Source: Bacteroidales bacterium (lineage in GTDB: Bacteria; Bacteroidota; Bacteroidia; Bacteroidales; VadinHA17). Taken from it: DNA of 61,427 bases. The stretch covers positions 1 to 61,427 of the forward strand of contig WOYX01000005.1 in NCBI GenBank assembly GCA_011620595.1, given 5' to 3'. Shown here piece by piece: positions 2,120 to 23,904 of the stretch. The notes beneath the pieces were generated by a model. The model was not told where the DNA came from. It worked only from the letters and a program-made list of their open reading frames with translations, and ran no database searches. How positions within the stretch are numbered: the stretch's first letter is position 1; every line of letters begins with the position of its first letter. A program made the translations under genes and the position numbers.

Positions 2120-3151
2120 ATGAAGAAGTTACTTGCGCTTTTTATGCTTTCGGTGATATGTTTTTCAGGGTGTCTGGTGGACAAATCGAATACCGAAATA
2201 ATACAAAAGGAAAGAGGCCGTATCGTAGATGTATCTGATAAGATAGTGGATGTTAAGACAGATATCATTTTTGGCAGTTCGATTTTATACATTATTGATG
2301 ATATATTAATTGTTGCTGATATGTCACATAAGGCTGATAAGTGCATTCATCTTTTCAACAAGAATACTTTTAAATACATAGCCAGCACCGGGATAATTGG
2401 AAGGGGTCCGGGGGAGATAACTAATCTGGGCAAAATTGGGATTGACGAGAAAAACAAGATTCTGTGGGTAGTCGACCATGGTAAAAAAGTGATGCACAAA
2501 TTCCCTTTGGACAGCATATTAGCAAATAATAACTTTAAACCAACCTCCTATCTGGATATGGATAATGAGCTGCTCCTTGTTGATTTTGGGTTCCTTAATG
2601 ACAGTATTATTCTGGGAAGAGCCATGCATCCATTGTCTCATTCCACATTTGACATGACTAATACTAAACTGAATGTCAATACTAATGAGATTGAACGGTT
2701 TGGTTATGAAAATGCTGAATGTTCAGGAAAGACGAAGATTGCATCCTTTAGCCTGTCAGTTGAGAACAATTTCTATGTGAACTGCTATGATGAGTGCGAC
2801 TTGATGACTATATGCGACCTCAACGGTAACCTGAAACACAACATATATGGCCCCGGGTGGAATGACAAAGACCAGGACAGAAAAGCATATTACTTCGGAT
2901 CCGATATATTTAACGGGAAAATCGTTGCAGCTTATATTGGTGATCTGGAATTTGTTTTTAAGGGAAACATAACCCGGGGAGCTGCGCCATCAACTCTTAT
3001 AATATTTGAGAAGGACGGCAGATATTTAAAAACGATCAATACAGGGTATGAATTTGAACGTTTTTGTATTGATGAAGAGAACAAGAGGATTATTGCATAT
3101 TTTATTGACAGGGAAGAACCGCTGGGTTATTTCAATATTCCGGTTGAATAG
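2120..3151 (+). CDS. BF3164-like/TolB-like 6-bladed beta-propeller lipoprotein (paralog A)
   Basis: Lipobox FSGC, GRGPGEI, LNDSI, C-terminal REEPLGYFNIPVE shared with paralogs. Confidence 0.85.
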   Translation: MKKLLALFMLSVICFSGCLVDKSNTEIIQKERGRIVDVSDKIVDVKTDIIFGSSILYIIDDILIVADMSHKADKCIHLFNKNTFKYIASTGIIGRGPGEITNLGKIGIDEKNKILWVVDHGKKVMHKFPLDSILANNNFKPTSYLDMDNELLLVDFGFLNDSIILGRAMHPLSHSTFDMTNTKLNVNTNEIERFGYENAECSGKTKIASFSLSVENNFYVNCYDECDLMTICDLNGNLKHNIYGPGWNDKDQDRKAYYFGSDIFNGKIVAAYIGDLEFVFKGNITRGAAPSTLIIFEKDGRYLKTINTGYEFERFCIDEENKRIIAYFIDREEPLGYFNIPVE

Positions 3152-3189
3152 TCAGGATTCTGAAGATGGAATGATAAAATTTCCTACTG

Positions 3190-3239
3190 GAAATTCCCGG
3201 AAATTCCCGAAAAAAACTTAAACATCTTATTTAATTTTA
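3190..3239 (+). promoter_or_regulatory. 2x GAAATTCCCG direct repeats plus -7-like box TAATTTTA
   Basis: Repeats 3190-3209, then 22 nt, then TAATTTTA 3232-3239; same geometry in five copies. Confidence 0.6.
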
Positions 3240-3295
3240 CATAGGTCAAGTTTGCCGTTTTACGAAATATTTGTTAAGGTATAAAAGTATAAATC

Positions 3296-3376
3296 AGAAA
3301 GAAAAGGGCAGAAAGCTTTGCCAGTATTGCCAAGTACTTTCTGCCCCGGCCTTTCACAAAAAATGAAAGGAGGTGA
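3296..3376 (-). ncRNA. Putative ~80-nt structured antisense sRNA, copy 1
   Basis: Minus-strand -7 box TATCTTTG (3387-3380); 5' hairpin CCTTTCA/TGAAAGG; 10-bp stem GGGCAGAAAG/CTTTCTGCCC followed on the minus strand by TTTTCTTTCT. Confidence 0.6.
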
Positions 3377-3483
3377 TCACAAAGATATCAAAACAGAGTA
3401 ATTAAAAAGCTAAATGAAGCATAATTAATGGCCTTGGCCACTGTGATTTCAAGATGATATTTTAGTAATTAATAATCGAAATT

Positions 3484-3735
3484 ATGAAAAGGAAAGCAAT
3501 TTTTGCAACAATCGCCAGCATAATTGTAGTGTTTACTATTCTTAGTGCAAATGTTGCCCAGGTACGCTCAGATGATAATGGTCTGCATAGTATTAAAATA
3601 ATGTCGCAGGCAAATGCGCAGGTGAATCCGGATTGCCCGAATGGTTGTCTTGATGGTGGAGCGGGTTGCACGTGTAATGGATATCATCCTCATTATCTGG
3701 ATTATGCGGAATATAAGAAAATGCAGCAGCAGTAA
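3484..3735 (+). CDS. Secreted Cys-rich peptide precursor 1 (NVEALA-like architecture)
   Basis: Basic N-terminus and hydrophobic signal, pro-region ending MSQANA-Q, core CPNGC-x6-CxCNG; three paralogs in the window. Confidence 0.85.
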   Translation: MKRKAIFATIASIIVVFTILSANVAQVRSDDNGLHSIKIMSQANAQVNPDCPNGCLDGGAGCTCNGYHPHYLDYAEYKKMQQQ

Positions 3736-3753: not shown

Positions 3754-3781
3754 GTATGGGCACAACCTGTGCCCATACTTT
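3754..3781 (+). terminator. Hairpin after peptide gene 1
   Basis: GTATGGGCACA-ACC-TGTGCCCATAC followed by TTT. Confidence 0.65.
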
Positions 3782-3804: not shown

Positions 3805-4839
3805 ATGAAAAAGTCATTTGCGCTTTTTATACTAGCGGTGATATGTTTTTCAGGGTGTCTGGTGGACAAATCGAAAACCGAGAAGATCCAGAAAAAAAGA
3901 GACAAAATAGTAAGCGTAAAGAATGATATTGTGGATATCAAAACTGAAGTACTATTTGGAAAATCTTTATTATATATTATTGACGACTACCTGGTTCTTC
4001 TTGAAGTCGCATCTAAAACCCCCAAGTGTATTCATCTATTTGATAAGAACACCTTTAGGCATATTGCCAGTACAGGTTTACTGGGAAGAGGCCCGGGAGA
4101 AATCACTGAGCCTGGCAATATTGGAGTAGACAGGCAGAATAAAATATTATGGGTGCCTGACTTTGGACAAAAAGTCATATGGAAATTCCCCCTGGACAGC
4201 GTGCTTAAGAATGAAGCCTTTATGCCTACAGAATATTTGAGGATAAACGATGACGTATTTATTGATAGATTCAATATCCTAAATGACAGTATATTTATAG
4301 GGAAAGCAGTGCGATATCTTGATGACAACTCTTACATAACGATTATGTCAAAACTAAATATTAGAAATAATGTGATTCAAGAATTTGGTTATGCAAATCC
4401 CCGGATTGAAGATGATAAGGCAATCTCTCTATTTGCGCTTTCAATAGCCGATAATATTTACGTCAATAGTTATTTTAAATATGACCTGATCACAATTTGC
4501 AATTTGGAGGGAAAACTTTTATATAATGTATATGGATCAGAGGGATTGAACAATGATGGGAACAAGAAATCATATTATTTTGGAATTGAAATAGCAGACG
4601 GGAAGATATTCGCATCATACATCAATGATTTAGCTGTTGTTAATGATGGGAACAGGCCGAAAGGGAATAGTCCTTCTAAACTCTTAATATTTAATACACG
4701 AGGAGACTATTTATTTACAATAGAAACCGGAGATAAGTTTTCTTATTTTTGCGTAGATGAGGATAATAACAGGATAATAGCATATTTTGATGGAAGAGAA
4801 GAAGCTCTGGGATATTTTAATATACCTGTTAATTATTGA
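3805..4839 (+). CDS. BF3164-like beta-propeller lipoprotein (paralog B)
   Basis: Lipobox FSGC, GRGPGEI, REEALGYFNIP. Confidence 0.85.
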   Translation: MKKSFALFILAVICFSGCLVDKSKTEKIQKKRDKIVSVKNDIVDIKTEVLFGKSLLYIIDDYLVLLEVASKTPKCIHLFDKNTFRHIASTGLLGRGPGEITEPGNIGVDRQNKILWVPDFGQKVIWKFPLDSVLKNEAFMPTEYLRINDDVFIDRFNILNDSIFIGKAVRYLDDNSYITIMSKLNIRNNVIQEFGYANPRIEDDKAISLFALSIADNIYVNSYFKYDLITICNLEGKLLYNVYGSEGLNNDGNKKSYYFGIEIADGKIFASYINDLAVVNDGNRPKGNSPSKLLIFNTRGDYLFTIETGDKFSYFCVDEDNNRIIAYFDGREEALGYFNIPVNY

Positions 4840-4914
4840 GGCATCCAAATGGGGAATCTAAAAAACATAAATGTAATTATTGAAGTGCACAACCGTAGAT
4901 TTTTTATAAAAGTC

Positions 4915-5952
4915 ATGAGATATTTGCAATCAATAGCGGCTCTCCTAATGCTGCTTGCTTCCGGCTGTGTTAATAATAATGAGAATAAAACTGAAATAAT
5001 ACAAAAAGATAGAGGTCGTATAGTAGATGTATCTGACAAGATAGTGAATATTAAAACAGATTATGTTATTGGGAAGGCTTTCTTATATATCATTGACGAT
5101 ATCCTGATTGCTGAAGAATTCTATCCCAAAGGAGAAAAAGTAGATCATCTGTTTGATCTTAACACATTCAGATATATTACAAGCACAGGTGTCATGGGCA
5201 GGGGGCCGGGAGAGATAACTATCCCAAGTGGTATATTGGTTGACAGGGAAAAAAGAGTCTTCTGGCAGCTTGATGTAGGGAAAAAAGTTCTGCATAAATT
5301 TCCTCTGGACAGTGTTCTGTCTGACAAAATGTATATGCCTGATGCTTCGGTAAAGCTGGTAGATACATTGCTTCTTGTGTATTATAGTTTCTTAAATGAC
5401 AGCATCGCTCTCGGCAAAGCAATAGAGCCTTTTACCGGTTCACCTTTTGTAACAATGGCCATGACGAAGTTTAATATTAATGCCGGTGAAATAAAAAGAT
5501 TCGGATACGAAAATCCGAAAGTAAAGGGCAAGTTTACTAACTCATATTTCGATCTGTCTGTAGAAAATGGGATATATATCAATTGCTACCTATTTAAAGA
5601 TTTAATGACCATCTGTGACTTAGACGGCAACCTGAAATATAATGTTTACGGACCCGGATGGGATGATCCCGAAAAGGATGATAATGGCTATTATTATGAT
5701 GTAGTGATATATAACAAGAATATCTTTGCTTCCTACCTTGGAAGTAAAGGTTCTGTTGTTGAAGACAACATGGAAAGAGGAGTATATCCCAATAGCATCA
5801 TAATATTCGACCTGGATGGCTCATATCAGAAAACTATTGAAACCGGGTCTGAAATATGCAGCTTTTGTATTGATGAAAAGCATAACAGGATTATTGCATA
5901 TTTTATTGACAGGGAAGAACCGCTGGGTTATTTCAATATTCCGGTTGAATAG
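4915..5952 (+). CDS. BF3164-like beta-propeller lipoprotein (paralog C1)
   Basis: Start moved to ATG 4915 (MRYLQ, as in paralogs C2 and C3); lipobox ASGC; REEPLGYFNIPVE. Confidence 0.85.
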   Translation: MRYLQSIAALLMLLASGCVNNNENKTEIIQKDRGRIVDVSDKIVNIKTDYVIGKAFLYIIDDILIAEEFYPKGEKVDHLFDLNTFRYITSTGVMGRGPGEITIPSGILVDREKRVFWQLDVGKKVLHKFPLDSVLSDKMYMPDASVKLVDTLLLVYYSFLNDSIALGKAIEPFTGSPFVTMAMTKFNINAGEIKRFGYENPKVKGKFTNSYFDLSVENGIYINCYLFKDLMTICDLDGNLKYNVYGPGWDDPEKDDNGYYYDVVIYNKNIFASYLGSKGSVVEDNMERGVYPNSIIIFDLDGSYQKTIETGSEICSFCIDEKHNRIIAYFIDREEPLGYFNIPVE

Positions 5953-5990
5953 TCGGGATTCGGAAGGTGGAATGATAAAATTTCCTACTG

Positions 5991-6060
5991 GAAATTCCCG
6001 GAGATTCCCGGAGATTCCCGGAAATTCCCGGAAAATCAATTTATTATGTTGGTATTTTTG
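5991..6060 (+). promoter_or_regulatory. 4x GARATTCCCG repeats plus canonical -7 box TATTTTTG
   Basis: Repeats 5991-6030, 22-nt spacer, TATTTTTG 6053-6060. Confidence 0.65.
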
Positions 6061-6095
6061 AGAGATCAATAATTAATAACCAATAATTTTATGCT

Positions 6096-6320
6096 ATGAA
6101 AAAACTGTGTCTTTGCGTGGGGATTTTAGCTTTTGCTATTTTCATTGGATCGACTCTATCCAATGTAAATGCTCAGAGTAACGAGGAACTGAGTAATGAA
6201 TACCCCGGTGGTGAGTCATATCTGGGTCCCGTATGTATGAATTCTTCCGGAACCTATTATTGTTGCAAGAATTCGTCAGGTGCTTGCGATAAGCCTGCTA
6301 CTTGTCCTTCCTGCCAATAG
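6096..6320 (+). CDS. Secreted Cys-rich peptide precursor 2 (different family, 6 Cys in the mature part)
   Basis: Signal peptide ending VNA-Q; mature region CMNSSGTYYCCKNSSGACDKPATCPSC. Confidence 0.8.
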   Translation: MKKLCLCVGILAFAIFIGSTLSNVNAQSNEELSNEYPGGESYLGPVCMNSSGTYYCCKNSSGACDKPATCPSCQ

Positions 6321-6341
6321 GGATAAATTTGGATTCTAATC

Positions 6342-6375
6342 ATGGGGGAAGCCTGAATATTAAAGGCTTCCTCAT
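6342..6375 (+). terminator. Hairpin after peptide gene 2
   Basis: GGGGAAGCCT ... AGGCTTCCTC stem. Confidence 0.5.
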
Positions 6376-6521
6376 CTTACAAACAGTAAAACAATACCAA
6401 GATGATTTACATTTTGGTTGACTTAATTGTCTAAGTTTAAAGTTCATGATCTGATTAAGAATCATATCATGGGGATACACAAAATATAGGATAGTAATAG
6501 AGTAAATTATTATTAAGAGCC

Positions 6522-7742
6522 TTGAAAAGAAAGTTCAAAGAGTTACTTACGGGTTTATTAGCAACTTCAGGATTGGCTGTCTTGTGCTTCTGCAACACTG
6601 CGTGTACAAAGCAAAATCAAGTTGATTTTACCAGGATTAGTATCGATCCTGAGAATGCCGGTACCTTGAAATATTCAGAAATATACAGTAAAATCGAAAT
6701 TCTACCGATTGAAACGGATACAGCGTTTCTAATTGATGAGGTTCAGAAGCTGATTGTTGAGAATGATAAATATTTCTTTCAATGCAATAACAAAATACTG
6801 GTTTTCAATAGTACTGGTCGTCCGCTGTATAAAATTGATAATGTTGGCAAGGGGCCTGGCGAATATATTGCAATAGGTGACATCATATTGGATGAAGGTA
6901 GGTTGGAATTATATGACAGCAAGCAACGAAAAATAATCCAGCATGATGAGAACGGTAGGTATCTGAACGAATGGAGATGCGGGATTGATGCTTATTCATT
7001 TGTAAAGTTAAACTCAGATCTGTATGCTTTTTATGTCGGTGCCGGAGGCTATTATAATAATACAAACAAAAAGCTGCTTGTCTTTTCAAGAAAGAAAGGA
7101 AAAGTAATTGACGGATTCATTGAAACACCCGAATATGAAATGGAATATATGCATTTTGCAGATTTAGTTAACTTTCAGCAATATAAAGAAGATATATATT
7201 TCCTTTACAGCTTTAATGATACCATCTATAACATTACCGGGAATGGAATATCCCCACGCTATTTCATCGATTTTGGTAAATACAGGTTGCCCCATAAATA
7301 TCTTGAAGGCAAATATAACGGAATTGAAGCCTTTTTCTCAGATTGTCTGAAATCGGGGAGCGCATTTAAGCTTATGGGATTCTTTGAATCTGACGAATAC
7401 ATAATATCATCTTTCTTTTATAATGGGCTTAATTATATACACTTCTATTATTCCAAAAGCAAGAGAGAGGCCAGAGTAGTGGATGCATACTTTGACGATA
7501 TGTTAGTAAAGGGCGTAGAGTTTAAAACATCATTCTATAATTTACCCTTTACTGTAAAAAATAACAAAACATACACTGTCACAAATGCTTATGAACTCAT
7601 GGCAAAAATAGACTCTTTAAGGAGTAAAGTGACAGTTCGTGATTGGGAGATTTTTTTGGAAAAGAATGCTGATATTATGGAATTATACAATAAAATATCA
7701 ATAGACAGTAACCCGGTCTTATTGATTGGATCCTTAGTATAA
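6522..7742 (+). CDS. 6-bladed beta-propeller protein (DUF4934/DUF5128-like), probable lipoprotein
   Basis: IEILPIET, GKGPGEY, PRYFIDFG, C-terminal DSNPVLL; TTG start. Confidence 0.8.
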   Translation: MKRKFKELLTGLLATSGLAVLCFCNTACTKQNQVDFTRISIDPENAGTLKYSEIYSKIEILPIETDTAFLIDEVQKLIVENDKYFFQCNNKILVFNSTGRPLYKIDNVGKGPGEYIAIGDIILDEGRLELYDSKQRKIIQHDENGRYLNEWRCGIDAYSFVKLNSDLYAFYVGAGGYYNNTNKKLLVFSRKKGKVIDGFIETPEYEMEYMHFADLVNFQQYKEDIYFLYSFNDTIYNITGNGISPRYFIDFGKYRLPHKYLEGKYNGIEAFFSDCLKSGSAFKLMGFFESDEYIISSFFYNGLNYIHFYYSKSKREARVVDAYFDDMLVKGVEFKTSFYNLPFTVKNNKTYTVTNAYELMAKIDSLRSKVTVRDWEIFLEKNADIMELYNKISIDSNPVLLIGSLV

Positions 7743-7826
7743 CTCCTCACTTAGTCCAGTATAAATATAATGCATTCATAATCAGCACTTGAAATGATTC
7801 GATATTTTGAAATTCAATCATAGTGA

Positions 7827-8456
7827 ATGAGAAAAGACTTGTTTTTTAATATCGTATTTACTATTATTTTTATTGGGTGTATAATCATGTCAGTGATTAA
7901 CCTGGCTGAAAGGAAGAATCTGTTAAAGCAGTTTCAGAACCTTGAGAGGGAGAAAGAACTGGGAATAGATATTGTTAGGGAAAAAGCCAGGCAAATGATT
8001 TTGCAGCACATGAGCGCCACGAATGAAAGAATAGATTCATCCCTGATTATTTACACCGCAAGAGGTGAAGAAGTGAAAATTGCCTCTTTATTGAAAGCAG
8101 GAGAAAAACTCATTCTTAGGATTCCATTAAATTCATGTGGATTATGTTATGATCAATCGCTTAAGGTTATGAATGAGATGGTCCATATTATTGGGAAGGA
8201 GGATTTAATTGTGTTGTTGCCTAAAAGTAGAGGCAGAGAGTTCACTACTTTCTTTAAGGAAAACAATTGTGTTGATCTTCAGTTCTTTTATACAGATGAT
8301 GATTTTAAGATATCAATTTTAGACAACAATGGAATCCCATTCTTTTTTACGACCTCTCCAGACCTAATCTGCCGCAACCATTTATTTCTAGAAAAGGATC
8401 CGGATGACTTTATATTTAAATATTTGATTTTCATAAAAGAAAATGTCATCCTTTAA
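7827..8456 (+). CDS. Membrane-anchored thioredoxin-like (CxxC) protein
   Basis: N-terminal TM helix; LILRIPLNSCGLCYD and a later IPFFF strand typical of the Trx fold. Confidence 0.6.
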   Translation: MRKDLFFNIVFTIIFIGCIIMSVINLAERKNLLKQFQNLEREKELGIDIVREKARQMILQHMSATNERIDSSLIIYTARGEEVKIASLLKAGEKLILRIPLNSCGLCYDQSLKVMNEMVHIIGKEDLIVLLPKSRGREFTTFFKENNCVDLQFFYTDDDFKISILDNNGIPFFFTTSPDLICRNHLFLEKDPDDFIFKYLIFIKENVIL

Positions 8457-8536
8457 ACTTAATTTTTAATTGGAGGCAACACGCATGCTTACCGGGAAAA
8501 GGTAGTGTTCCAATCAGTGTGTCCGGGGTAGAAGGC

Positions 8537-8620
8537 CTTTAAAAAGAATTATTATTTTGTTCTGGGTGATATTTTTTACAATTCCTTTGATTCAAGATTC
8601 TGGTGATTCGTGCCTGAAGA
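8537..8620 (+). pseudogene. Relic of a signal peptidase I gene (C-terminal fragment)
   Basis: 84 nt nearly identical to 15794-15877 (FKKNYYFVLGD..YNSFDSRFW..VPE), with a GGA>TGA stop. Confidence 0.85.
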
Positions 8621-9235
8621 AAACCAACTACCTGTCTGGAAATGGATGATGAGCTGCTCCTTGTTGATTTTGGGTTCCTTAATGACAGTATTGTTCTGGG
8701 AAGAGCTATACATTCATTGTCACATTCCACTTTTGACATGACAATGACAAAACTGAATGCCAATACTAATGAGATTGAACGGTTTGGTTATGAGAACCCC
8801 GAATGTCCAGGAAAGAAGAAGATTGCATCATTTAGCCTGTCAGTTGAGAACAATTTCTATGTGAACTGCTATGATGAGTGCGACTTGATGACTATATGCG
8901 ACCTCAACGGTAACCTGAAACACAACATATATGGCCCCGGGTGGAATGACAAAGACCAGGACAGAAAAGCATATTACTTCGGATCCGATATATTTAACGG
9001 GAAAATCGTTGCAGCTTATATTGGTGATCTGGAATTTGTTTTTAAGGGAAACATAACCCGGGGAGCTGCGCCATCAACTCTTATAATATTTGAGAAGGAC
9101 GGCAGATATTTAAAAACGATCAATACAGGGTATGAATTTGAACGTTTTTGTATTGATGAAGAGAATAAGAGGATTATCACATATTTTATTGACAGGGAAG
9201 AACCGCTGGGTTATTTCAATATTCCAGTTAAATAG
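8621..9235 (+). pseudogene. 5'-truncated copy of beta-propeller paralog A
   Basis: No signal peptide or lipobox; 8831-9165 matches 2747-3081 base for base by eye; fused directly to the SPase relic. Confidence 0.85.
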
Positions 9236-9274
9236 TCAGGTTTCAGAAAGGAGAAATTATAAAAATCATTACTG

Positions 9275-9334
9275 GAAAATCCCAGAAAATCCCAGAAAAT
9301 CCCAGAAAAATCTTAAACATCTTATTTAATTTTA
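9275..9334 (+). promoter_or_regulatory. 3x GAAAATCCCA variant repeats plus TAATTTTA box
   Basis: Repeats 9275-9304, 22-nt spacer, box 9327-9334. Confidence 0.6.
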
Positions 9335-9390
9335 CAGAAGTCAGGTTTGCTGTTTTGATAGAGATCATGAAAATAAAACAAGTATAAATC

Positions 9391-9475
9391 AGAAAGAAAA
9401 GGGCAGAGAGTTTTCAAGTTTGACGAAACATCTCTCTGCCCGGACCCTTTCCTTAATGAAAGAAAGGAGGTATAG
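9391..9475 (-). ncRNA. Putative antisense sRNA, diverged copy 2
   Basis: Stem GGGCAGAGAG/CTCTCTGCCC (compensatory change versus other copies), CCTTTC/GAAAGG hairpin, minus-strand TATCTTTG at 9486-9479. Confidence 0.6.
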
Positions 9476-9591
9476 TAACAAAGATAGTATTAAAGAAGGA
9501 ACATTCTTCCCGGTTGAAAAGGATGAAGCTTGCTTAACAGGCATAGCGGGTTGTACTTTAATTTGTTAAGGTTAATATAATTGAAACTATC

Positions 9592-9841
9592 ATGAAAAAA
9601 AAAGATCATTTTAACGGCTATAGGCAGTATTTTTGCTATATTTTCAATACTCAGCTTTAATCTGCCTATGAAAATCACAGGTGATATTACGGTCAAAAAC
9701 ATTAGAGTAATGGCTCAGGCAAAAGCGAGTGAGCTTTGCCCGAATGGATGCCTGCTTGATGGTGACGGTTGCATTTTCTATGGGTGGCATCCATACTATA
9801 AGGAATATAACTGGAATGATCAGACGAAATTGACACTTTAG
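9592..9841 (+). pseudogene. Frameshifted Cys-rich peptide precursor 3
   Basis: An A9 run follows the ATG; removing one A gives 82 aa MKKKIILTAIGSIFAIFSILSFNLPMKITGDITVKNIRVMAQAKASELCPNGCLLDGDGCIFYGWHPYYKEYNWNDQTKLTL. Confidence 0.85.
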
Positions 9842-9871
9842 ATCTTGCAACTGACCCTTAATTAGAACCAG

Positions 9872-9895
9872 GGGCGGTCACTCATTTGACCGCCC
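9872..9895 (+). terminator. Hairpin after peptide gene 3
   Basis: GGGCGGTCA-CTCATT-TGACCGCCC. Confidence 0.55.
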
Positions 9896-9922
9896 TAAAG
9901 ATTAAGAAAGCATTTGTGTGTT

Positions 9923-10957: not shown

Positions 10958-10995
10958 TCGGGATTCGGAAGGTGGAATGATAAAATGTCCTACTG

Positions 10996-11055
10996 GAAAT
11001 TCCCGGAAATTCCCGGAAATTCCCGAAAAAAACTTAAACATCTAATATAATTTTA
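10996..11055 (+). promoter_or_regulatory. 3x GAAATTCCCG repeats plus TAATTTTA box
   Basis: Repeats 10996-11025, 22-nt spacer, box 11048-11055. Confidence 0.6.
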
Positions 11056-11109
11056 CATAGGACAAGTTTGCCGTTTTACGAATTTTTTTAAGGTATAAAA
11101 GTATAAATC

Positions 11110-11190: not shown

Positions 11191-11293
11191 CAACAAAGAT
11201 AGTAAAACAGAAAATTAAACAAGCTGCATCAGCTTGCTCAACGGTTACGGCCATTCTGAATTCGTAAAAATGTTTTGTTAAAAAACTGTCATC

Positions 11294-15068: not shown

Positions 15069-15161
15069 TATCATACCCTGCCATTAATTTACTCTAAAAC
15101 GGTAAATCGGGAAAAACCTTTTGGTTTAATCGACTAAACCTAAAGGCAGAATGTTATAAGA

Positions 15162-15986: not shown

Positions 15987-16138
15987 TGAATACTGTTCAT
16001 TTTCTATGAGACTTAAATTTATCAGGCAGTATTAGCTGAACGCTTTTTTACTAATACTGACAAATCCTTTAAATGTTTTGGCAGATAGCATATTTCTGTT
16101 TACTTTTAAACCTGCTGTTTGATCAATACGAAGTTATT

Positions 16139-16342
16139 ATGGACAAGTATTTCTTTTCCAGACAAGAAATAGCTGCTGAACTGGGCATTGATCCAAAAAC
16201 TCTCAGACAAAAATTAAAAAAAGCAGGTATCATGTTGGAAAGTGGTATGATCCCGGCTGAGAAGGTCAGGGAAATAATGCACCTTCTGCAGGTGAAACAG
16301 GAAAATCACGATGGCACTGAGCAAATTGACCAGCCTGATTGA
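16139..16342 (+). CDS. Small HTH DNA-binding protein
   Basis: SRQEIAAELGIDPKTLRQKLKK HTH pattern; start moved to ATG 16139. Confidence 0.7.
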   Translation: MDKYFFSRQEIAAELGIDPKTLRQKLKKAGIMLESGMIPAEKVREIMHLLQVKQENHDGTEQIDQPD

Positions 16343-16404
16343 AATTTTAATAAATTTGATAGATCATTCCTTGATAGTCAACAGTGTAATAACCCCATTA
16401 CCAG

Positions 16405-17478
16405 ATGCAAAAGAGGGCATTCATTCCACGGCTTTTTGCAATAGCTCTTGGTTGTGCATTAATAATCCCAGGGTCATGCAAATCAAGACAGACAGACAAC
16501 ACGGAGGAACTGGCAAGAAGAACATCGCGGCCCGAGGCCGTGATGGTTAAAACAGTCAGACTCGAACCGTCAACATTCTATCACGAGATCATCAGCAACG
16601 GCAAGGCATTCTCCCTTAGCAAGGCTGTCGTCCCGTTCAAGGTAAACGGCATAATTGAAGAGCTGTATGTGAAAAACGGCCAGAGGGTGAAAGCCGGCCA
16701 GCTGCTGGCCGTCATAGAGGACTTCGAATACAAAACCAGCCTCACCAGCGCAAGACAGGCCCTGACCAAGGCCGACATAAACTTCAGGGATGACCTGCTC
16801 AGTAAGTACATGACGGCAGACACAAACAACCTTGACCCTGCAAAAATAAGAACCTCCAGGATCAGGAGCGGACTGGATGATGCACTTTTAGCCCTTGAAA
16901 AGGCTGAGTATAACTACAACAACACACGGATATACTCCCCGCTCGACGGGGTGATTGCCAACCTCGAGGCCACCCGCCTGAACCCCAGCCAGAACTATAA
17001 GAGCCTCTGCACGGTGATTGCCAACGATGTAATGTATATAGAGTTCCCCGTGATGGAGTCGGAATACGGGTTCATCACCACCGGAATGCCCGTAGGGATA
17101 ATCCCTTTTGTTGATGACAGCCTTCTCATACAGGGGAAGATAGTGGAGATCAATCCGCAGGTTGATGAGGGAGGCATGATACGCGTCAGGGCCGAGTTCA
17201 GGAACAACGGCCGCCTTATTGACGGCATGAATGTCAAGGTCCTTATCAGGAAGCCTGAATATAACAGGCTGGTCATCCCCAAAGAAGCCCTGGTGATCAG
17301 GCAGGGGAAAGATGTGGTCTTCATCAGGCAGGATTCCCTGGCTATATGGAAGTATGTCACCATTGAGTCTGAGAACAGTTCGATGGTCTCCGTGAGCGAG
17401 GGACTCACGCCCGGCGACCTGGTCATTGTAAGAGGCAACACCAACCTCGCACATGAAACAAAGGTGAAAGAGGAATGA
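16405..17478 (+). CDS. RND efflux periplasmic adaptor (MFP) lipoprotein
   Basis: Lipoyl halves VKNGQRVKAGQLL and IYSPLDGVI; LVIPKEAL; GLTPGDLVI. Confidence 0.92.
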   Translation: MQKRAFIPRLFAIALGCALIIPGSCKSRQTDNTEELARRTSRPEAVMVKTVRLEPSTFYHEIISNGKAFSLSKAVVPFKVNGIIEELYVKNGQRVKAGQLLAVIEDFEYKTSLTSARQALTKADINFRDDLLSKYMTADTNNLDPAKIRTSRIRSGLDDALLALEKAEYNYNNTRIYSPLDGVIANLEATRLNPSQNYKSLCTVIANDVMYIEFPVMESEYGFITTGMPVGIIPFVDDSLLIQGKIVEINPQVDEGGMIRVRAEFRNNGRLIDGMNVKVLIRKPEYNRLVIPKEALVIRQGKDVVFIRQDSLAIWKYVTIESENSSMVSVSEGLTPGDLVIVRGNTNLAHETKVKEE

Positions 17479-20400
17479 GTTCCCCGAGTGAACAGACACC
17501 ACGCTTTTCGCCTTTCAGCCTGAACATCTTCTTCGTGGTGCTCATCATCACCGGAGCAGCGATAATGCCTCTGCTGTCGCTGCAGTTGAACCCCACCCGC
17601 TATCTCCCCTCACTGACAGTAAGCTATACCTGGCCTGATGCCGCCGCCAGGGTGGTTGAGCAACAGGTCACCTCGGTCCTTGAGGGTGTGATAAGCACTC
17701 TCCCTGGGGTCAGTCGCATCTCTTCCACCACAAACAATGAGAGCGGAGAGATAACCGTGGAATTCGACAGGAATACGGATCTCCGCACCAAACGGTTTGA
17801 GGTGGCATCACTCATCCGCGATGCCCACTCGCGCCTGCCCGAAAGGGTTTCTTATCCGGTTATTCAGATGAATATGCCGTCGAATACCAGCGGATCGGTG
17901 ATATTGAGCTACCAGGTGACAGGAAATGAGGCTCCTTCCTATATCTTCAGTATTGCGGAGGAGCTGCTGAAGCCGGCGATAGCATCCGTTGACGGCGTCT
18001 ACAGCGTGGATATCTATGGCGCCACACCCCGTGCCTGGGAGCTGATATATGATCAGAAGGTCCTCTCTTCAACAGGGGTGACCCCCAGCCGGATACGTGA
18101 TGCAATAAGGGCATATCTTTCTGTCCGGGAGGCTGGCGGAGGAGTGGATAACCTGCTCTCTTCAGGAATGAAAAGGACATATCTGACTATGGTCGGCCAC
18201 AGGCCGGATACGGTCAGGTGGGAGGATATCCCTGTCACTGCCGGTAACGGCAGGGTGCTGATGCTCTCTGATCTTGTCACAGTGAAGCTCAGGGATGAGA
18301 GACCCCGCAGTTACTATCGCATTAACGGCCTCAACACCATTACCATGGTGATAAGCGCCGGAAGGAACGTCAATAATATCAGGGTTGCAGAGGAGGTGAA
18401 GGATGTGATTGAGAAAATGAAGAGCAAGATACCTCCCGGCCATGATGTGATACTTTCGCTTGACAATACAGGCTTTATCCGGGAGGAGATATCCCGGAAC
18501 CTTTTCAGGGCGGTGCTGTCGGTCATACTGCTCCTGGTCTTCGCTTTTCTTGTTAGCCGCGACCTTAAATACATGCTCATACTGCTCATCAGTATGGTGG
18601 CAACCATTTTTATAGCCTTCATCTTCTACTGGCTGTTCAGGCTTGAGATACACCTCTATTCCATGGCAGGGATTGCCGTGTCATTTGGTATGATCATCAG
18701 CAATATTATAGTGATGACTGATCACATCAAATACCATCATAACCGGAAGGTTGGCATCTCACTCATGGCAGCGACGCTTACCACCGTGGGAGCGCTGGTG
18801 GTGATCTTCTTCCTTGATGAGGCCTCGCGGGTCACGCTGGCCGACTTCGCGGCGGTGGTGATCATTAACCTGATGGTATCACTGCTGGTGGCATTGTTCT
18901 TCATCCCTTCACTGGCACAATCGATCGGCTTCACCGGGAAGAGAGCCGCGGTAAATTTTCAGGGTAAACGCTTCGCCGGGAAGAGAGCCGCGTCAAATAT
19001 CCGGCGTAAACGCTTCGCTGTGCGTCTGACAAGGTTTTATGAGAGAGCCATCAGGTCATTTATCAGGTACAGGAAGGTATATATCACTGCGGCGGTGCTG
19101 CTGTTCGGACTGCCTCTGTTCTGGCTGCCGGATTCACTGCCTGTTGAAAAGATCAGGACAACTGCCGCCCCTGAGCCTGAGCTGACCCGCTGGCAGCAGT
19201 TTTACAATAAAACCCTCGGCAGCATAAAGTATGTTTCAGACATTAAACCCATTGTAAACAAGCTTACCGGGGGTACACTCAGGCTCTTCAGTGACCGGGT
19301 AAAGAGCAGCAATTATTATTATTTCAGGGGTTCCGACGATGTTGAGCGGACACAGCTCAGTGTAAGCATCGGCCTCAGCGAGGAGGGGCTGACACTCGAA
19401 GATATGAATGAGGTATGCCTGGGTCTTGAGAATATGATTGCAGCCTACAGCGAGGTGGACCGGTTTACCACCAGGGTCAGTTCGCCCTCGTCGGCATCCC
19501 TGACCGTCACATTCAAGCCGGAGCATGACCGCACAATATTCCCGTTCATCCTGAAGATGAGGATAGAGGACTACATGATGGGCATCGGCAGTTATCATGT
19601 CCAGGTGTACGGGGTGGGTAAAGCCTTCAGCAACCAGGTCTACAGTGACTACCTGAGGGGCTCATATTCAATCGTTCTGAAGGGATACAATTTTGATATT
19701 CTCAGCGGCTACGCCGAAGACCTTAAAGAGCGGCTCATCTCAAGCGCTAAGGGAAGGATAAAGGAAGTGTATGTACTGGGAGGAGAAGACCGCTGGTCAG
19801 TAAAGAAACAGTACAGGAACATTGTCTCTGCGGACAGGGAGTCGGTTACCCTGGCCGGAAGCGATATGTACAGCCTGTATGAACACACACGGAGTCTCTC
19901 GCGGAACAACCAGGATGGCGGGCAGGTCTACATGGGAGGCTTCCTTGCCCCGATGACCCTGAGATCAGCTTATGCAGAGACATACGAGATGTGGGACATT
20001 TACAATGAGCCGATGATCACAGGATCGCAGAGTATGGTGAAGCTTAAGGACCTGCTGAGCATGACCAGGGAGATAACGGATAATTCAATCAGTCGTGAGG
20101 ACCAGCAATATATTTTAACGGTGACATATGATTTCATCGGGAACTATGAGCTGGCCAGGATTATCAGGGACCGTAACATTGAAGAGACTGCGGCTCTCCT
20201 GCCGCTGGGCTATTCGGTACGCTCCAGTTCCTACACTTATTCATGGTTCACGCAGAAGAACAACTACCCGTTACTGTTACTTGTCATAGCGATCATCTAC
20301 CTCGTCTGCTCCATCCTGCTCGAGTCGCTCCGTCAGCCGTTCATAGTGCTCGGGCTGATACCGTTCTCTTTCATCGGGGTCTTCATTACTTTTTCGCTGT

Positions 20401-20867
20401 TTAAGATACCGACAGATGAAGGGGTGTTTGCAGCGATGATCCTCCTGTGCGGGCTGGCTGTCAACTCGGCGCTTTACATCCTTGACGATTACAACAGGCT
20501 GAAGCGTTCCGGGAGGCGTCTTCCGGCGGTGAGGATGTATCTTAAGGCCTTCAACGGGAAGATCATCCCCGTCATTCTTACGATCTTGTCTACAATTGTA
20601 GGTCTTCTGCCGTTCCTCCTTACAGGCAGGGATGAGCGGTTCTGGTTCGCGCTGGCAGCGGGAGCCATCGGCGGGCTACTCTTCAGCATGGTAGGGCTGC
20701 TCGTGTTTCAGCCGATGATGCTGAGGAGGGAACAATTATTATTTCCGGAAACGGGAAGCCCCTCTGATTATACTGACCGTTCTGTTCCGGCAGGTATTTC
20801 GGGCAAACCGGGCAACACAGAACCTCAGAACCCTGATAAACCTGATAACACCGTTCACCATGGTTAG
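17475..20867 (+). CDS. RND efflux permease subunit 1 (AcrB family)
   Basis: 1130 aa, 12-TM RND topology, LLESLRQP, PVILTILSTIVGLLP. Confidence 0.9.
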   Translation: MSSPSEQTPRFSPFSLNIFFVVLIITGAAIMPLLSLQLNPTRYLPSLTVSYTWPDAAARVVEQQVTSVLEGVISTLPGVSRISSTTNNESGEITVEFDRNTDLRTKRFEVASLIRDAHSRLPERVSYPVIQMNMPSNTSGSVILSYQVTGNEAPSYIFSIAEELLKPAIASVDGVYSVDIYGATPRAWELIYDQKVLSSTGVTPSRIRDAIRAYLSVREAGGGVDNLLSSGMKRTYLTMVGHRPDTVRWEDIPVTAGNGRVLMLSDLVTVKLRDERPRSYYRINGLNTITMVISAGRNVNNIRVAEEVKDVIEKMKSKIPPGHDVILSLDNTGFIREEISRNLFRAVLSVILLLVFAFLVSRDLKYMLILLISMVATIFIAFIFYWLFRLEIHLYSMAGIAVSFGMIISNIIVMTDHIKYHHNRKVGISLMAATLTTVGALVVIFFLDEASRVTLADFAAVVIINLMVSLLVALFFIPSLAQSIGFTGKRAAVNFQGKRFAGKRAASNIRRKRFAVRLTRFYERAIRSFIRYRKVYITAAVLLFGLPLFWLPDSLPVEKIRTTAAPEPELTRWQQFYNKTLGSIKYVSDIKPIVNKLTGGTLRLFSDRVKSSNYYYFRGSDDVERTQLSVSIGLSEEGLTLEDMNEVCLGLENMIAAYSEVDRFTTRVSSPSSASLTVTFKPEHDRTIFPFILKMRIEDYMMGIGSYHVQVYGVGKAFSNQVYSDYLRGSYSIVLKGYNFDILSGYAEDLKERLISSAKGRIKEVYVLGGEDRWSVKKQYRNIVSADRESVTLAGSDMYSLYEHTRSLSRNNQDGGQVYMGGFLAPMTLRSAYAETYEMWDIYNEPMITGSQSMVKLKDLLSMTREITDNSISREDQQYILTVTYDFIGNYELARIIRDRNIEETAALLPLGYSVRSSSYTYSWFTQKNNYPLLLLVIAIIYLVCSILLESLRQPFIVLGLIPFSFIGVFITFSLFKIPTDEGVFAAMILLCGLAVNSALYILDDYNRLKRSGRRLPAVRMYLKAFNGKIIPVILTILSTIVGLLPFLLTGRDERFWFALAAGAIGGLLFSMVGLLVFQPMMLRREQLLFPETGSPSDYTDRSVPAGISGKPGNTEPQNPDKPDNTVHHG

Positions 20868-23800
20868 ATTCCTTGTACAGCGGCCTGTGGCAGTGATAAT
20901 GAGTTTCCTCGCGGTGATTGTCCTCGGCATCGCTGCTTCGGGGAGGCTTCCCGTATCACTGATGCCTGATATAGATATCCCCGAGATCACTGTGGCTGTC
21001 TCGCGTCCTGACATCAGCTCACGGGAGATAGAGAACAGCGTGGTGAGCGTCCTTCGCAGGAGCCTGATGCAGGTGGAGGGTGTTGATGACATCCGGTCGG
21101 AATCGCGCAACGGCAGCGCCATTATAAGGATGAAATTCGCCTTTGGAAATGACATCGACCTGGCATTCATGGAGGTCAATGAGAAGATCGATGCCGCCAT
21201 GAACCTTCTTCCCCGCGATCTTGATCGCCCGAGGGTGATAAAGGCAAGCGCCACTGACATCCCCGTCTTCATGCTCAACATAACCCTGGCAGACAGGGCC
21301 GCGGACCCGGCAGCCTTCGCCGACCTGAGCGACTTCGCAGGTAACATCATCCGCAAGCGTATTGAACAGCTGCCCGAGGTGGCCATGGCTGACATCACCG
21401 GTCAGGTCAGCAGGGAAATCTTTATCAGGCCCGATGAGCGTAAGATGCAAAGCCTCGGAATCACTCCCGAAGATATCATAACTGCCGTGAACATGAACAA
21501 TGTCAATGTCAGCAGCATCATGGTCAGGGATGGCAAGTATCTCTATAACCTTGAGTTTGATACAAACCTGAAGGGTGTGGATGATATCCGGAACATATGG
21601 CTGAAGAAGGAGGGGAAGTTGCTTAAGATAAAGGATATAGCTGTTGTTGACCTGAGGGTCCGGCGCGCCGGGGGCCTTTCATTCTCTGACAACAGGCAGG
21701 CGGTGGTGCTGGCAATAATAAAGGAAGCTTCTGCCAGGATGGAGAACCTGGAAGAGAAGATGGACGAGATGGTTAGCCAGTTCCGAAGCGATTATCCGCA
21801 GATGGAATTTGAGATCTCGCAGGACCAGACACGTCTCCTCGACTACTCACTCATGAACCTGAGGCAGAGCCTTATTTCAGGCGGCCTGCTGGCTTTCTTT
21901 ATCATGTTTTTCTTCCTCAGGGATGCCCGTTCACCACTGATAATCGGCGTCAGCATACCGACGACGCTTGTGATCAGCCTGCTCTTCTTCTACCTCGTGG
22001 GGCTCTCGATAAACGTCATCTCCCTTGCCGGCCTGATCCTTGGGATTGGCATGATGATCGATAACTCAATTGTGATAATAGAGAATATCACCCAGTGGAC
22101 CGACAGGGGCGAGAAGCTCATCAATGCATGTGTGAAGGGCACAACTGAGGTGATCACGCCTCTTATCTCGTCAGTGCTCACCACCTGTGCCGTGTTTGTG
22201 CCGCTGATCTTTCTGAGCGGCACTGCCGGAGCGCTGTTCTATGACCAGGCCATTGCCATCATCATCGGCCAGGGAGTCTCACTGCTGGTGGGGATCATGC
22301 TTCTGCCGACAGTATATCACCTTATCTATCGAAGCGGGAGGGAGGGTGCGCTGACCCGTTTCGTGAAACGGATCAGCCTTAAGAACCTCGAGGAAAAGTA
22401 TGAGGGGGGAATGAACTTTTTCTTCAGGCACCGGAGAGCGGTGATGGCTCTTTTCGGGGTGACAATCGCGGTAATGCTCCTCTTCTTCTTCAGCATGAGG
22501 AAGGAGGAGTTCCCGGCGATAGTTCAGGATGAGATGACAGTGATGATCGACTGGAATGAGAACATCGACCTGCAGGAGAATTCGGCACGGATACAGGCTC
22601 TTGTTGATCAGCTGGGAGAGAAGGCTGTGCAGACCAACAGCTTTGTGGGTGAGCAGCAGTTTATCTTCACACGCGAGTATGATCAGCCCTATTCATCGGC
22701 GAAAATATATATCAGGGCAGCGGGTTATGGAGCGGTGGATGAGATCAGGGAGTTGTTGATGGCATACCTGCCCTCGCGGTTCCCCGAGGCAGTGATGACC
22801 ATAAGGCCTCAGGAAAACATCTTTGAGAAGATTTTTGCGGCTTCAGAGACGCCACTGGTGGTTGAGGTGGCGCTGGCCGCTGAGAAGGCGGTGCCGCCGA
22901 TAGAGAGGATGATGCAGATCAACGGACTTCTTGCTGAGCGGTGGCCCGGGGCAGGGATCATGGCTCCGCAACTGGAGGAGAAGATAGAGATCAGGCTTGA
23001 CCCTGTGAGGATGCTGTTGTATGATATTGATCCCAACATAGTCTATCCGGCCATCAGGAGCGCGCTGAACCGCAATGAGATAGGTGAGCTGAGATCGTCA
23101 CATCAGATCCTTCCCGTTGTTATGGCAGGCAATGAGACACCTATAGGCGAGCATATGTCAAGCGGCTACGTGCTTAACAGGCATGGGGCGCGGGTTCCCG
23201 TCAATGAGATATGTGATGTCAGGCGGGTGCGTTACTACAAGGCCATAATGGGTAACATGGCGTCAGAGTATGTCCCTGTTGAGATGAATGTGTCGACGAA
23301 CCGCCCGGCACAGCTGACGGCTGAGATCGAAGAGGCTTTGTCGGCCGTGCCGGACCTCTCGCTCTCATTCAGCGGCACACTGATGACGGGCCAGCGGCTC
23401 TTCCGCGAGCTGGCGCTGGTGCTGCTTGTCTCACTGGTGCTTCTCTACTTCATTCTTGCCGCACAGTTTGAGTCGCTCACCCAGCCATTGATAGTGCTTC
23501 TTGAGATACCCATTGACATTGCAGGGGCGCTATTCCTGGTATGGTTATGGGGAGGGACAATCAACATAATGACGATGATAGGGATCATTGTGATGTCAGG
23601 TGTCATCATCAACGACTCGATACTAAAGGTAGATACTATCAACAATCTCAGGAAATCCGGGGTAGAGCTGAAGGAGGCGATATACACCGGCGGCTCGAGG
23701 AGGCTGAAGCCCATTATCATGGTTGCAATGGCGTCGTTGTTTTCGACTCTTCCGATGCTGTTCGGGTCAGGTTTGGGAAACCAGTTGCAGCGGCCGATGG

Positions 23801-23904
23801 CTCTGGCGCTGATAGGAGGCATGACCCTCGGCACCTTTGTCAGTCTCTACTTCATACCTCTGGCGTACTGGTATATCTACAGGAAACGGGAGAAGAAAGC
23901 ATAA
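20860..23904 (+). CDS. RND efflux permease subunit 2 (AcrB family)
   Basis: GMMIDNSIVIIENI, AQFESLTQP, RLKPIIM. Confidence 0.93.
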   Translation: MVRFLVQRPVAVIMSFLAVIVLGIAASGRLPVSLMPDIDIPEITVAVSRPDISSREIENSVVSVLRRSLMQVEGVDDIRSESRNGSAIIRMKFAFGNDIDLAFMEVNEKIDAAMNLLPRDLDRPRVIKASATDIPVFMLNITLADRAADPAAFADLSDFAGNIIRKRIEQLPEVAMADITGQVSREIFIRPDERKMQSLGITPEDIITAVNMNNVNVSSIMVRDGKYLYNLEFDTNLKGVDDIRNIWLKKEGKLLKIKDIAVVDLRVRRAGGLSFSDNRQAVVLAIIKEASARMENLEEKMDEMVSQFRSDYPQMEFEISQDQTRLLDYSLMNLRQSLISGGLLAFFIMFFFLRDARSPLIIGVSIPTTLVISLLFFYLVGLSINVISLAGLILGIGMMIDNSIVIIENITQWTDRGEKLINACVKGTTEVITPLISSVLTTCAVFVPLIFLSGTAGALFYDQAIAIIIGQGVSLLVGIMLLPTVYHLIYRSGREGALTRFVKRISLKNLEEKYEGGMNFFFRHRRAVMALFGVTIAVMLLFFFSMRKEEFPAIVQDEMTVMIDWNENIDLQENSARIQALVDQLGEKAVQTNSFVGEQQFIFTREYDQPYSSAKIYIRAAGYGAVDEIRELLMAYLPSRFPEAVMTIRPQENIFEKIFAASETPLVVEVALAAEKAVPPIERMMQINGLLAERWPGAGIMAPQLEEKIEIRLDPVRMLLYDIDPNIVYPAIRSALNRNEIGELRSSHQILPVVMAGNETPIGEHMSSGYVLNRHGARVPVNEICDVRRVRYYKAIMGNMASEYVPVEMNVSTNRPAQLTAEIEEALSAVPDLSLSFSGTLMTGQRLFRELALVLLVSLVLLYFILAAQFESLTQPLIVLLEIPIDIAGALFLVWLWGGTINIMTMIGIIVMSGVIINDSILKVDTINNLRKSGVELKEAIYTGGSRRLKPIIMVAMASLFSTLPMLFGSGLGNQLQRPMALALIGGMTLGTFVSLYFIPLAYWYIYRKREKKA

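Follow-up and report, generated by a model that had tools for sequence, protein, structure and literature searches.

We analyzed a stretch of DNA from a Bacteroidales bacterium, 61,427 nucleotides long and here called the window, which is the whole of one contig (C12) of a genome with 3.08 Mb, 63 contigs, 96.5% completeness, and 50.7% guanine-plus-cytosine (GC) content. Its left part holds an array of small genes for cysteine-rich peptides, each followed by a gene for a six-bladed beta-propeller lipoprotein. With them lie genes for two thioredoxin-like (Trx-like) CxxC proteins, a signal peptidase I (SPase I), a small helix-turn-helix (HTH) protein, and a resistance-nodulation-division (RND) pump made of a membrane-fusion protein (MFP) and two permeases. 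An earlier note on this DNA, written from the sequence alone, had listed these genes as a candidate system on a single strand, and all of them are present on the plus strand. We describe the genes, their recurrence elsewhere, and a pathway of peptide maturation and export that the locus may encode.

Peptides and their paired propellers

Five small Cys-rich peptide genes are found in the array, as the earlier note had counted. Four of them, P1 (83 aa, 3484-3735), P3 (9592-9841), P4 (81 aa, 11294-11539), and P5 (81 aa, 13023-13268), share a precursor layout consisting of a hydrophobic N-terminus, a segment ending in NIKIMSQANAQ, a core of the form (V)NPxCPxGC-x6-CxC(NG), and a variable tail. The four-cysteine core CPxGC-x6-CxC is common to all four; in P1, the pro-region reads IKIMSQANAQ and the core CPNGC-x6-CTC. 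P2 (74 aa, 6096-6320) is unlike the others and forms a separate family, with an ordinary signal peptide ending in NVNA-Q, a Cys-rich tail, and no Pfam family match. Assignment of P2 to the PhrK family was rejected, as the NCBIfam score (22.1 bits, cut-off 35) covered the signal peptide alone. The previously noted frameshift at 9592 lies in P3 and consists of one extra A in a run of nine (A9, 9592-9604). Eight are needed for an in-frame match to relatives (A8), and the in-frame stretch spans 9596-9796. The A9 run is identical in the sole contig that covers it (run X1), an agreement that is not independent because X1 may be the source sample. An assembly error, a pseudogene, or phase variation could each account for the frameshift.

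The proposal that these are NVEALA-type peptides held in part. No Pfam model detected them as such: the window peptides matched no Pfam family at E<=0.1 and no NCBIfam model above its cut-off, and the NVEALA family (PF14055) had no match across the whole genome at E<=1. Remote membership was recovered by a profile search. A word-indexed search with the peptides returned only 20 relatives, whereas a profile compared against 1.84 billion representatives returned 79 clusters at E<=1e-3, one of them (P0080) an obvious false positive. Many of these relatives combine a classic N[VI]EALA leader with the same Cys core, and PF14055 is matched by 29 of 63 aligned relatives (best E 3.8e-13). NIKIMS of the window peptides aligns to N-[IV]-E-[AV]-[LM]-[AS], and the columns directly before the core hold mostly small residues. 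By profile and alignment, the window peptides are remote, divergent members of the NVEALA superfamily. Small residues at positions -3 and -1 form the pattern after which type I signal peptidases cut. Such residues are present as A-L-A in the classic NVEALA family and as I-M-S and A-N-A in the window, where the candidate site lies about 20 residues past the hydrophobic segment.

Each of the five peptide genes is followed by a hairpin and then by a propeller gene (5/5), in keeping with the order described before. P1 precedes T2 (3805-4839), a propeller found downstream of P1-type peptides in every related locus seen, and P2 precedes a 406-aa DUF5128 propeller lipoprotein (6522-7742; PF17170, E 1.5e-40, 139.8 bits; DUF4934). 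P3, P4, and P5 are followed by T5 (9914-10957), T6 (11662-12693), and T7 (13353-14432, likely start 13395), respectively. Propellers are about twice as numerous as peptide genes, and several have no peptide gene ahead of them. A DUF5128-type six-bladed lipoprotein (1003-1965; PF17170, E 4.7e-26, 92.2 bits; lipoprotein signal) and T1 (2120-3151) both lack one, T3 (4849-5952, likely start near 4915) stands directly after T2 and is 83% identical to T6, and T4' (8642-9235) is truncated to its C-terminal half, with 92-98% identity to T1 DNA.

Several lines of evidence bear on the nature of the propellers, which the earlier note had called BF3164-like and six-bladed. T1 is 53.5% identical to T6 and matches the Pfam families TolB_like (PF15869, 30.4 bits, cut-off 29.2) and DUF5128 (PF17170, 30.2 bits, cut-off 22.9). 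Homologues of T6 are named 'BF3164 family lipoprotein' or '6-bladed beta-propeller' at NCBI, and precomputed Pfam annotation agrees; for the propellers themselves NCBIfam gave nothing above cut-off, and sequence searches of the PDB gave weak NHL matches only. The AlphaFold2 (AF2) model of T6 has a predicted local distance difference test score (pLDDT) of 91.7, and its Foldseek matches, at template-modelling scores (TM) of 0.53-0.6, include NHL six-blade domains, BF0058 of B. fragilis (4raa), and a structure of the DUF4221 family (3s9j). The lipoprotein cysteine, Cys18, is invariant in 67 propeller sequences, and several Asp, Glu, Arg, Ser, and Tyr residues and a Cys are likewise invariant across 67 homologues. 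Pfam matches, homologue names, and predicted fold all agree with the earlier description, and we class the propellers, on the model, as NHL-type six-bladed lipoproteins of the BF3164/TolB_like/DUF5128 kind.

Peptide cores and propellers vary together. Core identity tracks propeller identity with a Spearman coefficient of 0.60 over nine cassettes (36 non-independent pairs), and leaders are decoupled from both, as in one example with 84% identity in the leader, 38% in the core, and 44% in the propeller. A complex of T6 (residues 19-343) and P4 (residues 27-81), predicted with alignment inputs, scored 0.01-0.02 against a mark of 0.32, a result that we count neither way.

Candidate maturation genes, the pump, and their recurrence

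The two CxxC proteins and the SPase I of the earlier note were confirmed by model and profile. The first CxxC protein (7827-8456) carries the motif CGLC, and the second (14490-15068, likely start 14535) is a lipoprotein; neither has a Pfam or NCBIfam match, and their profile matches no PDB sequence. Both cysteines are invariant in the family alignment, with CxxC kept in 35 of 35 aligned relatives. A model of 14535-15068, built from an alignment that included 7827-8456, has a pLDDT of 90.2, and its Foldseek matches (E ~1e-5, TM 0.5-0.57) are 4grf, TlpA (4txv, 1jfu), and ResA (1st9), and include Bacteroides thiol-disulfide oxidoreductases. By predicted fold, the CxxC proteins are TlpA/ResA-like thiol-disulfide oxidoreductases. 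The SPase I gene (15162-15986) encodes an intact short paralogue of 274 aa (Pfam S26, E 9.7e-34; TIGR02227, 108.9 bits, cut-off 47) with the motifs SMEP, KR, and GDN..S.DSR, which we take to be the catalytic regions of signal peptidase I.

In this 96.5%-complete genome we found no match to DsbA, DsbB, or VKOR, which would create a need for private oxidoreductases; one MauE-family gene lies elsewhere in it. According to the available text of a study of bacteroidetocins, Bacteroides lack general disulfide machinery and bacteroidetocin loci bring their own thiol oxidoreductase (Coyne 2019, PMC6671954).

Downstream of the SPase I gene lie the small HTH gene (16073-16342), conserved at the same place before the MFP orthologue in two genomes of the genus, and the pump operon. 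This consists of the RND membrane-fusion protein or adaptor (16405-17478; HlyD_D23, 58.5 bits) and two permeases, a (1130 aa, 17475-20867; ACR_tran, E 4.6e-91, 306.5 bits) and b (1014 aa, 20860-23904; ACR_tran, E 2.6e-169, 565.5 bits). RND permease homologues occur at four loci in the genome, and the a plus b pair is found only at the window array and at a second array on another contig, C33. The closest paralogue of the window MFP is the C33 MFP; permeases a and b are 36% and 44.5% identical to their C33 counterparts, and the pump genes of the two loci are pairwise 36-44% identical.

The C33 locus (C33:81-16154, minus strand) repeats this architecture in divergent form, with members of other families. 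Its three Cys-rich peptides (15897-16154, 13691-13951, and 10642-10923) have similar leaders. They are accompanied by lipoproteins of the DUF4221 (Pfam E 4.8e-22) and CxxC kinds, by two paralogues of SPase I, of which one is frameshifted at ~8100-8870, and by a stand-alone LytTR gene (7467-7811), and RND, MFP, and RND genes come next. GC content is ~35% in the C33 array and 47-48% in its pump genes.

Same-genus genomes show what else can stand before this operon, which in three whose upstream region was read (G000, G002, and G010) is preceded by propeller arrays of differing content. In G002, the genes upstream of the orthologous RND operon are other low-GC propeller genes and a transposase-like open reading frame (ORF). 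In G010 (L017, that is G010:C10:125000-144700, 4729-19702), three Cys-rich peptides with double-glycine (GG) leaders each stand before a DUF5128 propeller, accompanied by a C39-VKOR-Trx fusion, a C39-ABC exporter, and an HlyD-like protein, and then by the orthologous HTH-MFP-RND genes. G013 keeps HTH-MFP-RND, and upstream of it only a 204-aa ORF of unknown kind is visible. A search of 30 relatives did not find the CxxC protein itself. The GG-leader/C39-ABC version in G010 argues that the peptides are exported products, and it suggests that the RND pump acts after an inner-membrane step.

Across the order, short SPase I paralogues were picked by eye as matches over the full length that begin no later than query residue 26. 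Of 300 other genomes, 9 contain such paralogues, at 13 places, and 12 loci were fetched. MFP/RND genes follow downstream on the same strand in five of the 12 (L020, L023, L025, L026, L029). A relative of the CxxC protein, a propeller detected by BLAST, and an N[VI]EA-type Cys-rich peptide are each found in 5/12 loci, and a sixth propeller falls just under the Pfam cut-off. One locus (L029) has the order of the window, namely peptide, propeller, Trx-like protein, SPase, MFP, and RND, and contains a relative of the first CxxC protein (E 7e-15). L019, L022, and L025 have arrays of the classic NVEALA type together with SPase I; L018, L021, and L027 hold little of the gene set, L027 being just 4 kb long. 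Two records of metagenome-assembled genomes (L001, L002) have peptide/propeller cassettes followed by a CxxC gene, and in L001 an SPase I gene follows too.

As a control, 12 housekeeping lepB loci (16-20 kb, labelled in the same way) were compared. None of the 12 had MFP/RND genes, a propeller, or a CxxC relative, and a small Cys ORF, matched by regular expression only, was present in 2/12. The earlier note had staked its proposal on the linkage of peptide, propeller, SPase I, Trx-like, and RND genes not being confined to this locus; searched for, that linkage is found both on C33 and in other genomes of the order.

Similar neighborhoods appear in published tables for model species. Those available for B. 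thetaiotaomicron list BT0662 (O-antigen ligase family), BT0664 (6-bladed propeller), BT0667 (lepB), and BT0669 (RND adaptor) (PMC10434189), and those for B. fragilis list BF9343_2901 (RND adaptor) and BF9343_2903 (lepB) (PMC11402942). Both are omics papers whose available parts tabulate the neighboring genes without comment.

Certain further genes recur in the related loci (L020, L022, and L029, and also L023, L024, L025, and L028): Wzy_C (O-antigen-ligase-like) membrane proteins with TPR, lipoproteins of 590-640 aa that match no Pfam family, a MauE/DoxX protein, and a DUF1573 lipoprotein. The window has none of these.

Non-coding modules, cassette history, and borders

A strong hairpin lies downstream of all five peptide genes (z -3.7 to -5.9; 0 of 200 shuffles fold as well), that of P1 at 3754-3778. 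Upstream, the conserved module that had been described ahead of every peptide is complete ahead of four of the five (3152-3483, 9236-9591, 10958-11293, and 12694-13022), as ~330 nt with decamer repeats and two hairpins; the P2 gene at 6096 has the decamer part only. The tandem decamers, GGAAATTCCC (GAAAATCCCA in one copy), are present in 2.5-4.5 copies at five sites, 3189-3213 (2.5 copies), 5990-6034 (4.5 copies, ahead of P2), 9275-9309 (variant decamers), 10995-11029 (3.5 copies), and 12731-12755. They lie ~40 nt past the stop codons of five propeller genes and head each peptide cassette. Copy number varies, since a metagenome contig has a 10-nt deletion at 10995. The decamers might bind a regulator or mark a place of recombination or slippage.

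The paired hairpins (3306-3400, 9401-9500, 11120-11215, and 12846-12940; first stems at 3306-3346, 9401-9441, 11120-11160, and 12846-12886) lie ~90-180 nt upstream of four peptide starts. The pair is also present in all five related loci, each stem has one compensatory change in a divergent copy, as at 9401-9441, and Rfam has no match to it. The pair may be an element of a 5' leader, or else it may terminate the preceding gene. Both elements exceed chance, with 4 hairpin-pattern and 7 decamer-pattern matches compared with 0 in 100 shuffles each. A sigma-70 scan, which does not cover Bacteroidota promoters, was uninformative, with 77 sites against 61.6 +/- 6.4 expected.

P3/T5, P4/T6, and P5/T7 form three tandem cassettes (9592-14432) with start-to-start distances of 1722-1739 nt. 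This spacing fits the expansion by cassette duplication put forward earlier, and we propose that the array grows through tandem duplication of ~1.73-kb cassettes and through fusion of whole loci. The first CxxC gene, an 87-nt remnant of a second SPase I gene (8537-8623, 93% identical to 15794-15880), and the truncated propeller together (7827-9235) suggest two complete loci fused head to tail.

Four sequencing runs (X1, X2, X4, X20), all stored as contigs, were compared with the window; uncovered stretches in such a comparison carry no meaning. Metagenome contigs link the cassettes differently, with 12706 joined back to 9300 in both X1 and X2, for instance, and relatives 85-95% alike occur in several runs labelled as oil-field, hydrocarbon, and sludge metagenomes; we read no habitat from runs with a small share. 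The RNA-library run labelled as an anaerobic digester metatranscriptome (X20) contains related cassette pieces of 85-95% similarity, which does not demonstrate transcription of the window locus. Cassettes have been shuffled from one population to another, and the order assembled here is open to some doubt.

GC content is 34-38% (~36%) over the first 16.4 kb of the window and 47-57% (~51%) over the rest. The array does not start at 2120, as the earlier note had placed it, and extends to the contig end through the propeller gene at 1003-1965 and gene remnants at 463-919. The latter are two overlapping short ORFs with, as judged by eye, a lipoprotein signal and a DUF5128-like C-terminus, probably the remains of a broken propeller gene. 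At positions 1-90 on the minus strand, the contig opens inside what appears by eye to be the N-terminus of an XRE-like HTH protein, and because the contig starts within this gene the left border of the array lies at or beyond the end of the contig. Just past the RND operon, at normal GC, stands a gene for a 7-bladed lactonase-family propeller (24276-25358; Pfam E 1.7e-78); homology to G002 stops before it, and it is probably unrelated to the array. Over the entire window Rfam gave no match at gathering thresholds, and a scan for tRNA and tmRNA found none.

A proposed peptide export pathway and known systems

The reading that we favor, to which we assign a probability of roughly one half, is that the locus produces and exports disulfide-bonded peptides by way of Sec, an SPase I and oxidoreductases of its own, and an RND pump, with the propellers as cognate partners. 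The precursors would be exported by Sec and stay tethered in the inner membrane. The short SPase I of the locus would then free the peptide by cutting after the small residues at -3 and -1, ~20 residues beyond the membrane on its outer side, and the TlpA/ResA-like CxxC lipoproteins would form its disulfides. We infer cleavage and disulfide folding from the intact-looking SPase I, the small residues before the core, and the TlpA-like lipoproteins, all read from sequence. The peptide would leave the periplasm by way of the neighboring adaptor and its two-permease RND pump, with the small HTH protein as regulator. The propeller, inherited with the peptide core as a unit, would most likely be the specific partner of the peptide, as an immunity protein or a binder/chaperone. 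This propeller role is the weakest point of the reading; by analogy, the excess of propellers over peptides resembles the orphan immunity genes of toxin arrays, and the cassette structure and the co-inheritance of core and propeller also hint, indirectly, at pairs of toxin and immunity protein.

A number of observations weigh against this export pathway. Mere adjacency, with recombination breaking inside the conserved leader, could also produce the correlation between core and propeller. The pathway offers no explanation for re-oxidation of the CxxC proteins in an anaerobe, the window operon contains no gene for an outer-membrane channel (factor), and one of the peptide genes (P3) is frameshifted. 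The array is repetitive and lies at a contig end, so cassette order may be partly an assembly choice. In 6 of the 12 short-SPase loci, some of them on short contigs, the fetched stretch has no MFP/RND genes, and in a further one (L024) there is a weak MFP/RND match only, ~8 kb off and on the other strand. GC content steps up between 16300 and 16700, where the MFP gene begins, and homology to G002, of the same genus, is confined to 16345-23897, at 85%. Adjacency of array and pump could stem from an insertion hot spot.

These last two observations indicate that the RND operon is native and the array a variable, possibly mobile insert. A low-GC mobile island might thus have landed, perhaps repeatedly, beside an ordinary efflux operon with which it has nothing to do, and the putative transposase-like ORFs in or beside related arrays (G002, L002) as well as the half of short-SPase loci without RND genes within reach would fit such a history. 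A lack of relation between array and RND genes, suggested by the GC break, was dropped as the principal interpretation in view of the C33 locus, the 0/12 controls, and the paired pumps. The architecture occurs twice in one genome with pump genes that are 36-44% identical, five of 12 loci elsewhere have MFP/RND genes compared with 0/12 controls, and the orthologous operon stands behind propeller arrays of differing content in three same-genus genomes. We regard an unrelated pump as distinctly unlikely.

It is also unlikely, if a little less so, that peptide and propeller form a stable two-subunit complex in the periplasm or at the surface, resembling methylamine dehydrogenase, with a peptide that is never released, a Trx-like protein and SPase I that mature the small subunit, and an RND pump that serves another purpose. 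Strict one-to-one adjacency and joint inheritance of core and propeller would suit such a complex. The mau cluster contains a MauD/MauE pair, and a MauE-family protein lies beside the Trx-like gene in some related loci (L022). Methylamine dehydrogenase heavy chains are also among the Foldseek matches of the propeller, weakly (TM 0.42-0.47, ranks 47-48). Propellers, however, are twice as numerous as peptide genes, and several have no peptide gene ahead; the same propeller families follow GG-leader peptides with a C39-ABC exporter, which is typical of released peptides, and a dedicated two-permease RND pump recurs with the arrays. Two other roles for the propellers appear very unlikely. As receptors for peptide pheromones, with the HTH protein (LytTR on C33) as output regulator, they would account for the small DNA-binding protein that both loci have after the maturation genes and ahead of the pump, and control by regulators of the LytTR kind is frequent in loci for peptide pheromones or bacteriocins. 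Scans of the window locus and of a set of C33 proteins, however, showed neither a sensor kinase nor a receiver domain, there is no link from the lipoproteins to either regulator, and many divergent peptide-partner cassettes with additional peptide-less partner genes are more toxin-immunity-like than signaling-like. If the propellers instead matured the peptide as modifying enzymes, and were neither its binders nor its immunity proteins, the many residues invariant across 67 homologues would suit a conserved active or binding site, and the six-bladed NHL-type fold does occur in known enzymes. A generic enzyme, though, would not need a copy of its own for every variant of the peptide, varying along with it; the nearest folds are NHL domains that are not enzymes and proteins from structural genomics whose function is unknown, and no cofactor or catalytic motif was identified.

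The export pathway might extend well beyond this locus. Tentatively, and with considerable doubt, we suggest a widespread Bacteroidota pathway in which tethered NVEALA precursors meet an SPase leader peptidase, TlpA oxidation, RND exit, and one propeller per peptide as its specific immunity protein or receptor, with interchangeable Sec/SPase I and GG-leader/C39-ABC versions at one site. NVEALA peptides and BF3164/DUF5128/DUF4221 propellers are families of unknown function that recur across Bacteroidales, and similar neighboring genes are found in the model gut species B. thetaiotaomicron (transcriptome table). If the proposal is true, a role could be assigned to these families, that of a large, diversifying class of disulfide peptides that are exported and have cognate partners. 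It would also make a signal peptidase I a dedicated leader peptidase and an RND pump an exporter of ribosomal peptides. Such a system would matter for competition between bacteria in the gut and in anaerobic digesters.

The earlier note knew of no demonstrated function for such loci, and the literature we searched contained no functional study of them. All protein families here are annotated, none with a function that has been demonstrated. Among the papers listed, no published function was found for the NVEALA, DUF4934, DUF5128, BF3164, TolB_like, or DUF4221 families, the supplements of PMC10434189 and PMC6671954 being outside the search. For the locus type, queried as Bacteroides signal peptidase, propeller, and RND, only the omics tables cited above were recovered (PMC10434189, PMC11402942), the B. 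thetaiotaomicron tags BT0664-BT0669 led only to the table already cited, and a paper on Bacteroidales RiPP mining (PMC10352776) contains none of the terms propeller, signal peptidase, NHL, TolB, RND, or cysteine-rich.

Among known systems, the NVEALA (PF14055) and BF3164/DUF5128/TolB_like/DUF4221 families share with the window the precursor layout, the core, and the propeller families; the window peptides differ in falling below the Pfam model and in having NIKIMS in place of NVEALA. By analogy of mechanism, the E. coli heat-stable enterotoxins resemble the proposed pathway. They are secreted in two steps, by Sec and then, after periplasmic oxidation by DsbA, through a TolC-dependent pump. Both systems would have a pre-pro-peptide, a Cys-rich product, a periplasmic disulfide step, and a tripartite pump, but the enterotoxin route relies on the ABC-type pump MacAB and on general DsbA, whereas in the window the pump is of the RND type and both the TlpA-like lipoproteins and the SPase I are private. 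The mau cluster of methylamine dehydrogenase comprises a small Cys-rich subunit, a propeller heavy subunit, Trx-like MauD, and membrane MauE. The window has a small Cys-rich polypeptide, a propeller, and a Trx-like protein as well, and one related locus has a MauE-family protein. The mau propeller, however, has seven blades, a quinone cofactor made via MauG, and no cassette arrays, and the window has no MauG and only weak fold similarity. Loci with GG leaders and C39-ABC exporters, such as those of class II bacteriocins and microcins, are represented at the orthologous site in G010, where this export type is combined with the same propeller family; in the window, Sec-type leaders and SPase I take their place.

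The nearest characterised system is the bacteroidetocin locus. Bacteroidetocins, on which Matano et al. also reportedly published in 2021 (PMC8546649), are unlike the window peptides in the make-up of their loci, the window having Sec-type leaders, SPase I, RND genes, and paired propellers. As described in the accessible text on these class IIf peptides, they are four-Cys Bacteroidota peptides with a cleaved leader, their own thiol oxidoreductase, and a dedicated exporter, all of which recall the window, but they carry a 15-residue double-glycine leader, are cleaved by a C39-ABC protein, and are encoded with a protein of five transmembrane segments (Coyne et al. 2019, PMC6671954). The four-gene regions presented there include no signal peptidase I, and the words 'propeller' and 'RND' are absent from that text. 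Neither a C39 nor an ABC gene is present among the array ORFs listed or scanned. With the defining GG leader and C39-ABC absent, the window is not a bacteroidetocin locus. It may instead be a variant of the Cys-rich exported-peptide locus, and its pathway may represent a class that has not been described.

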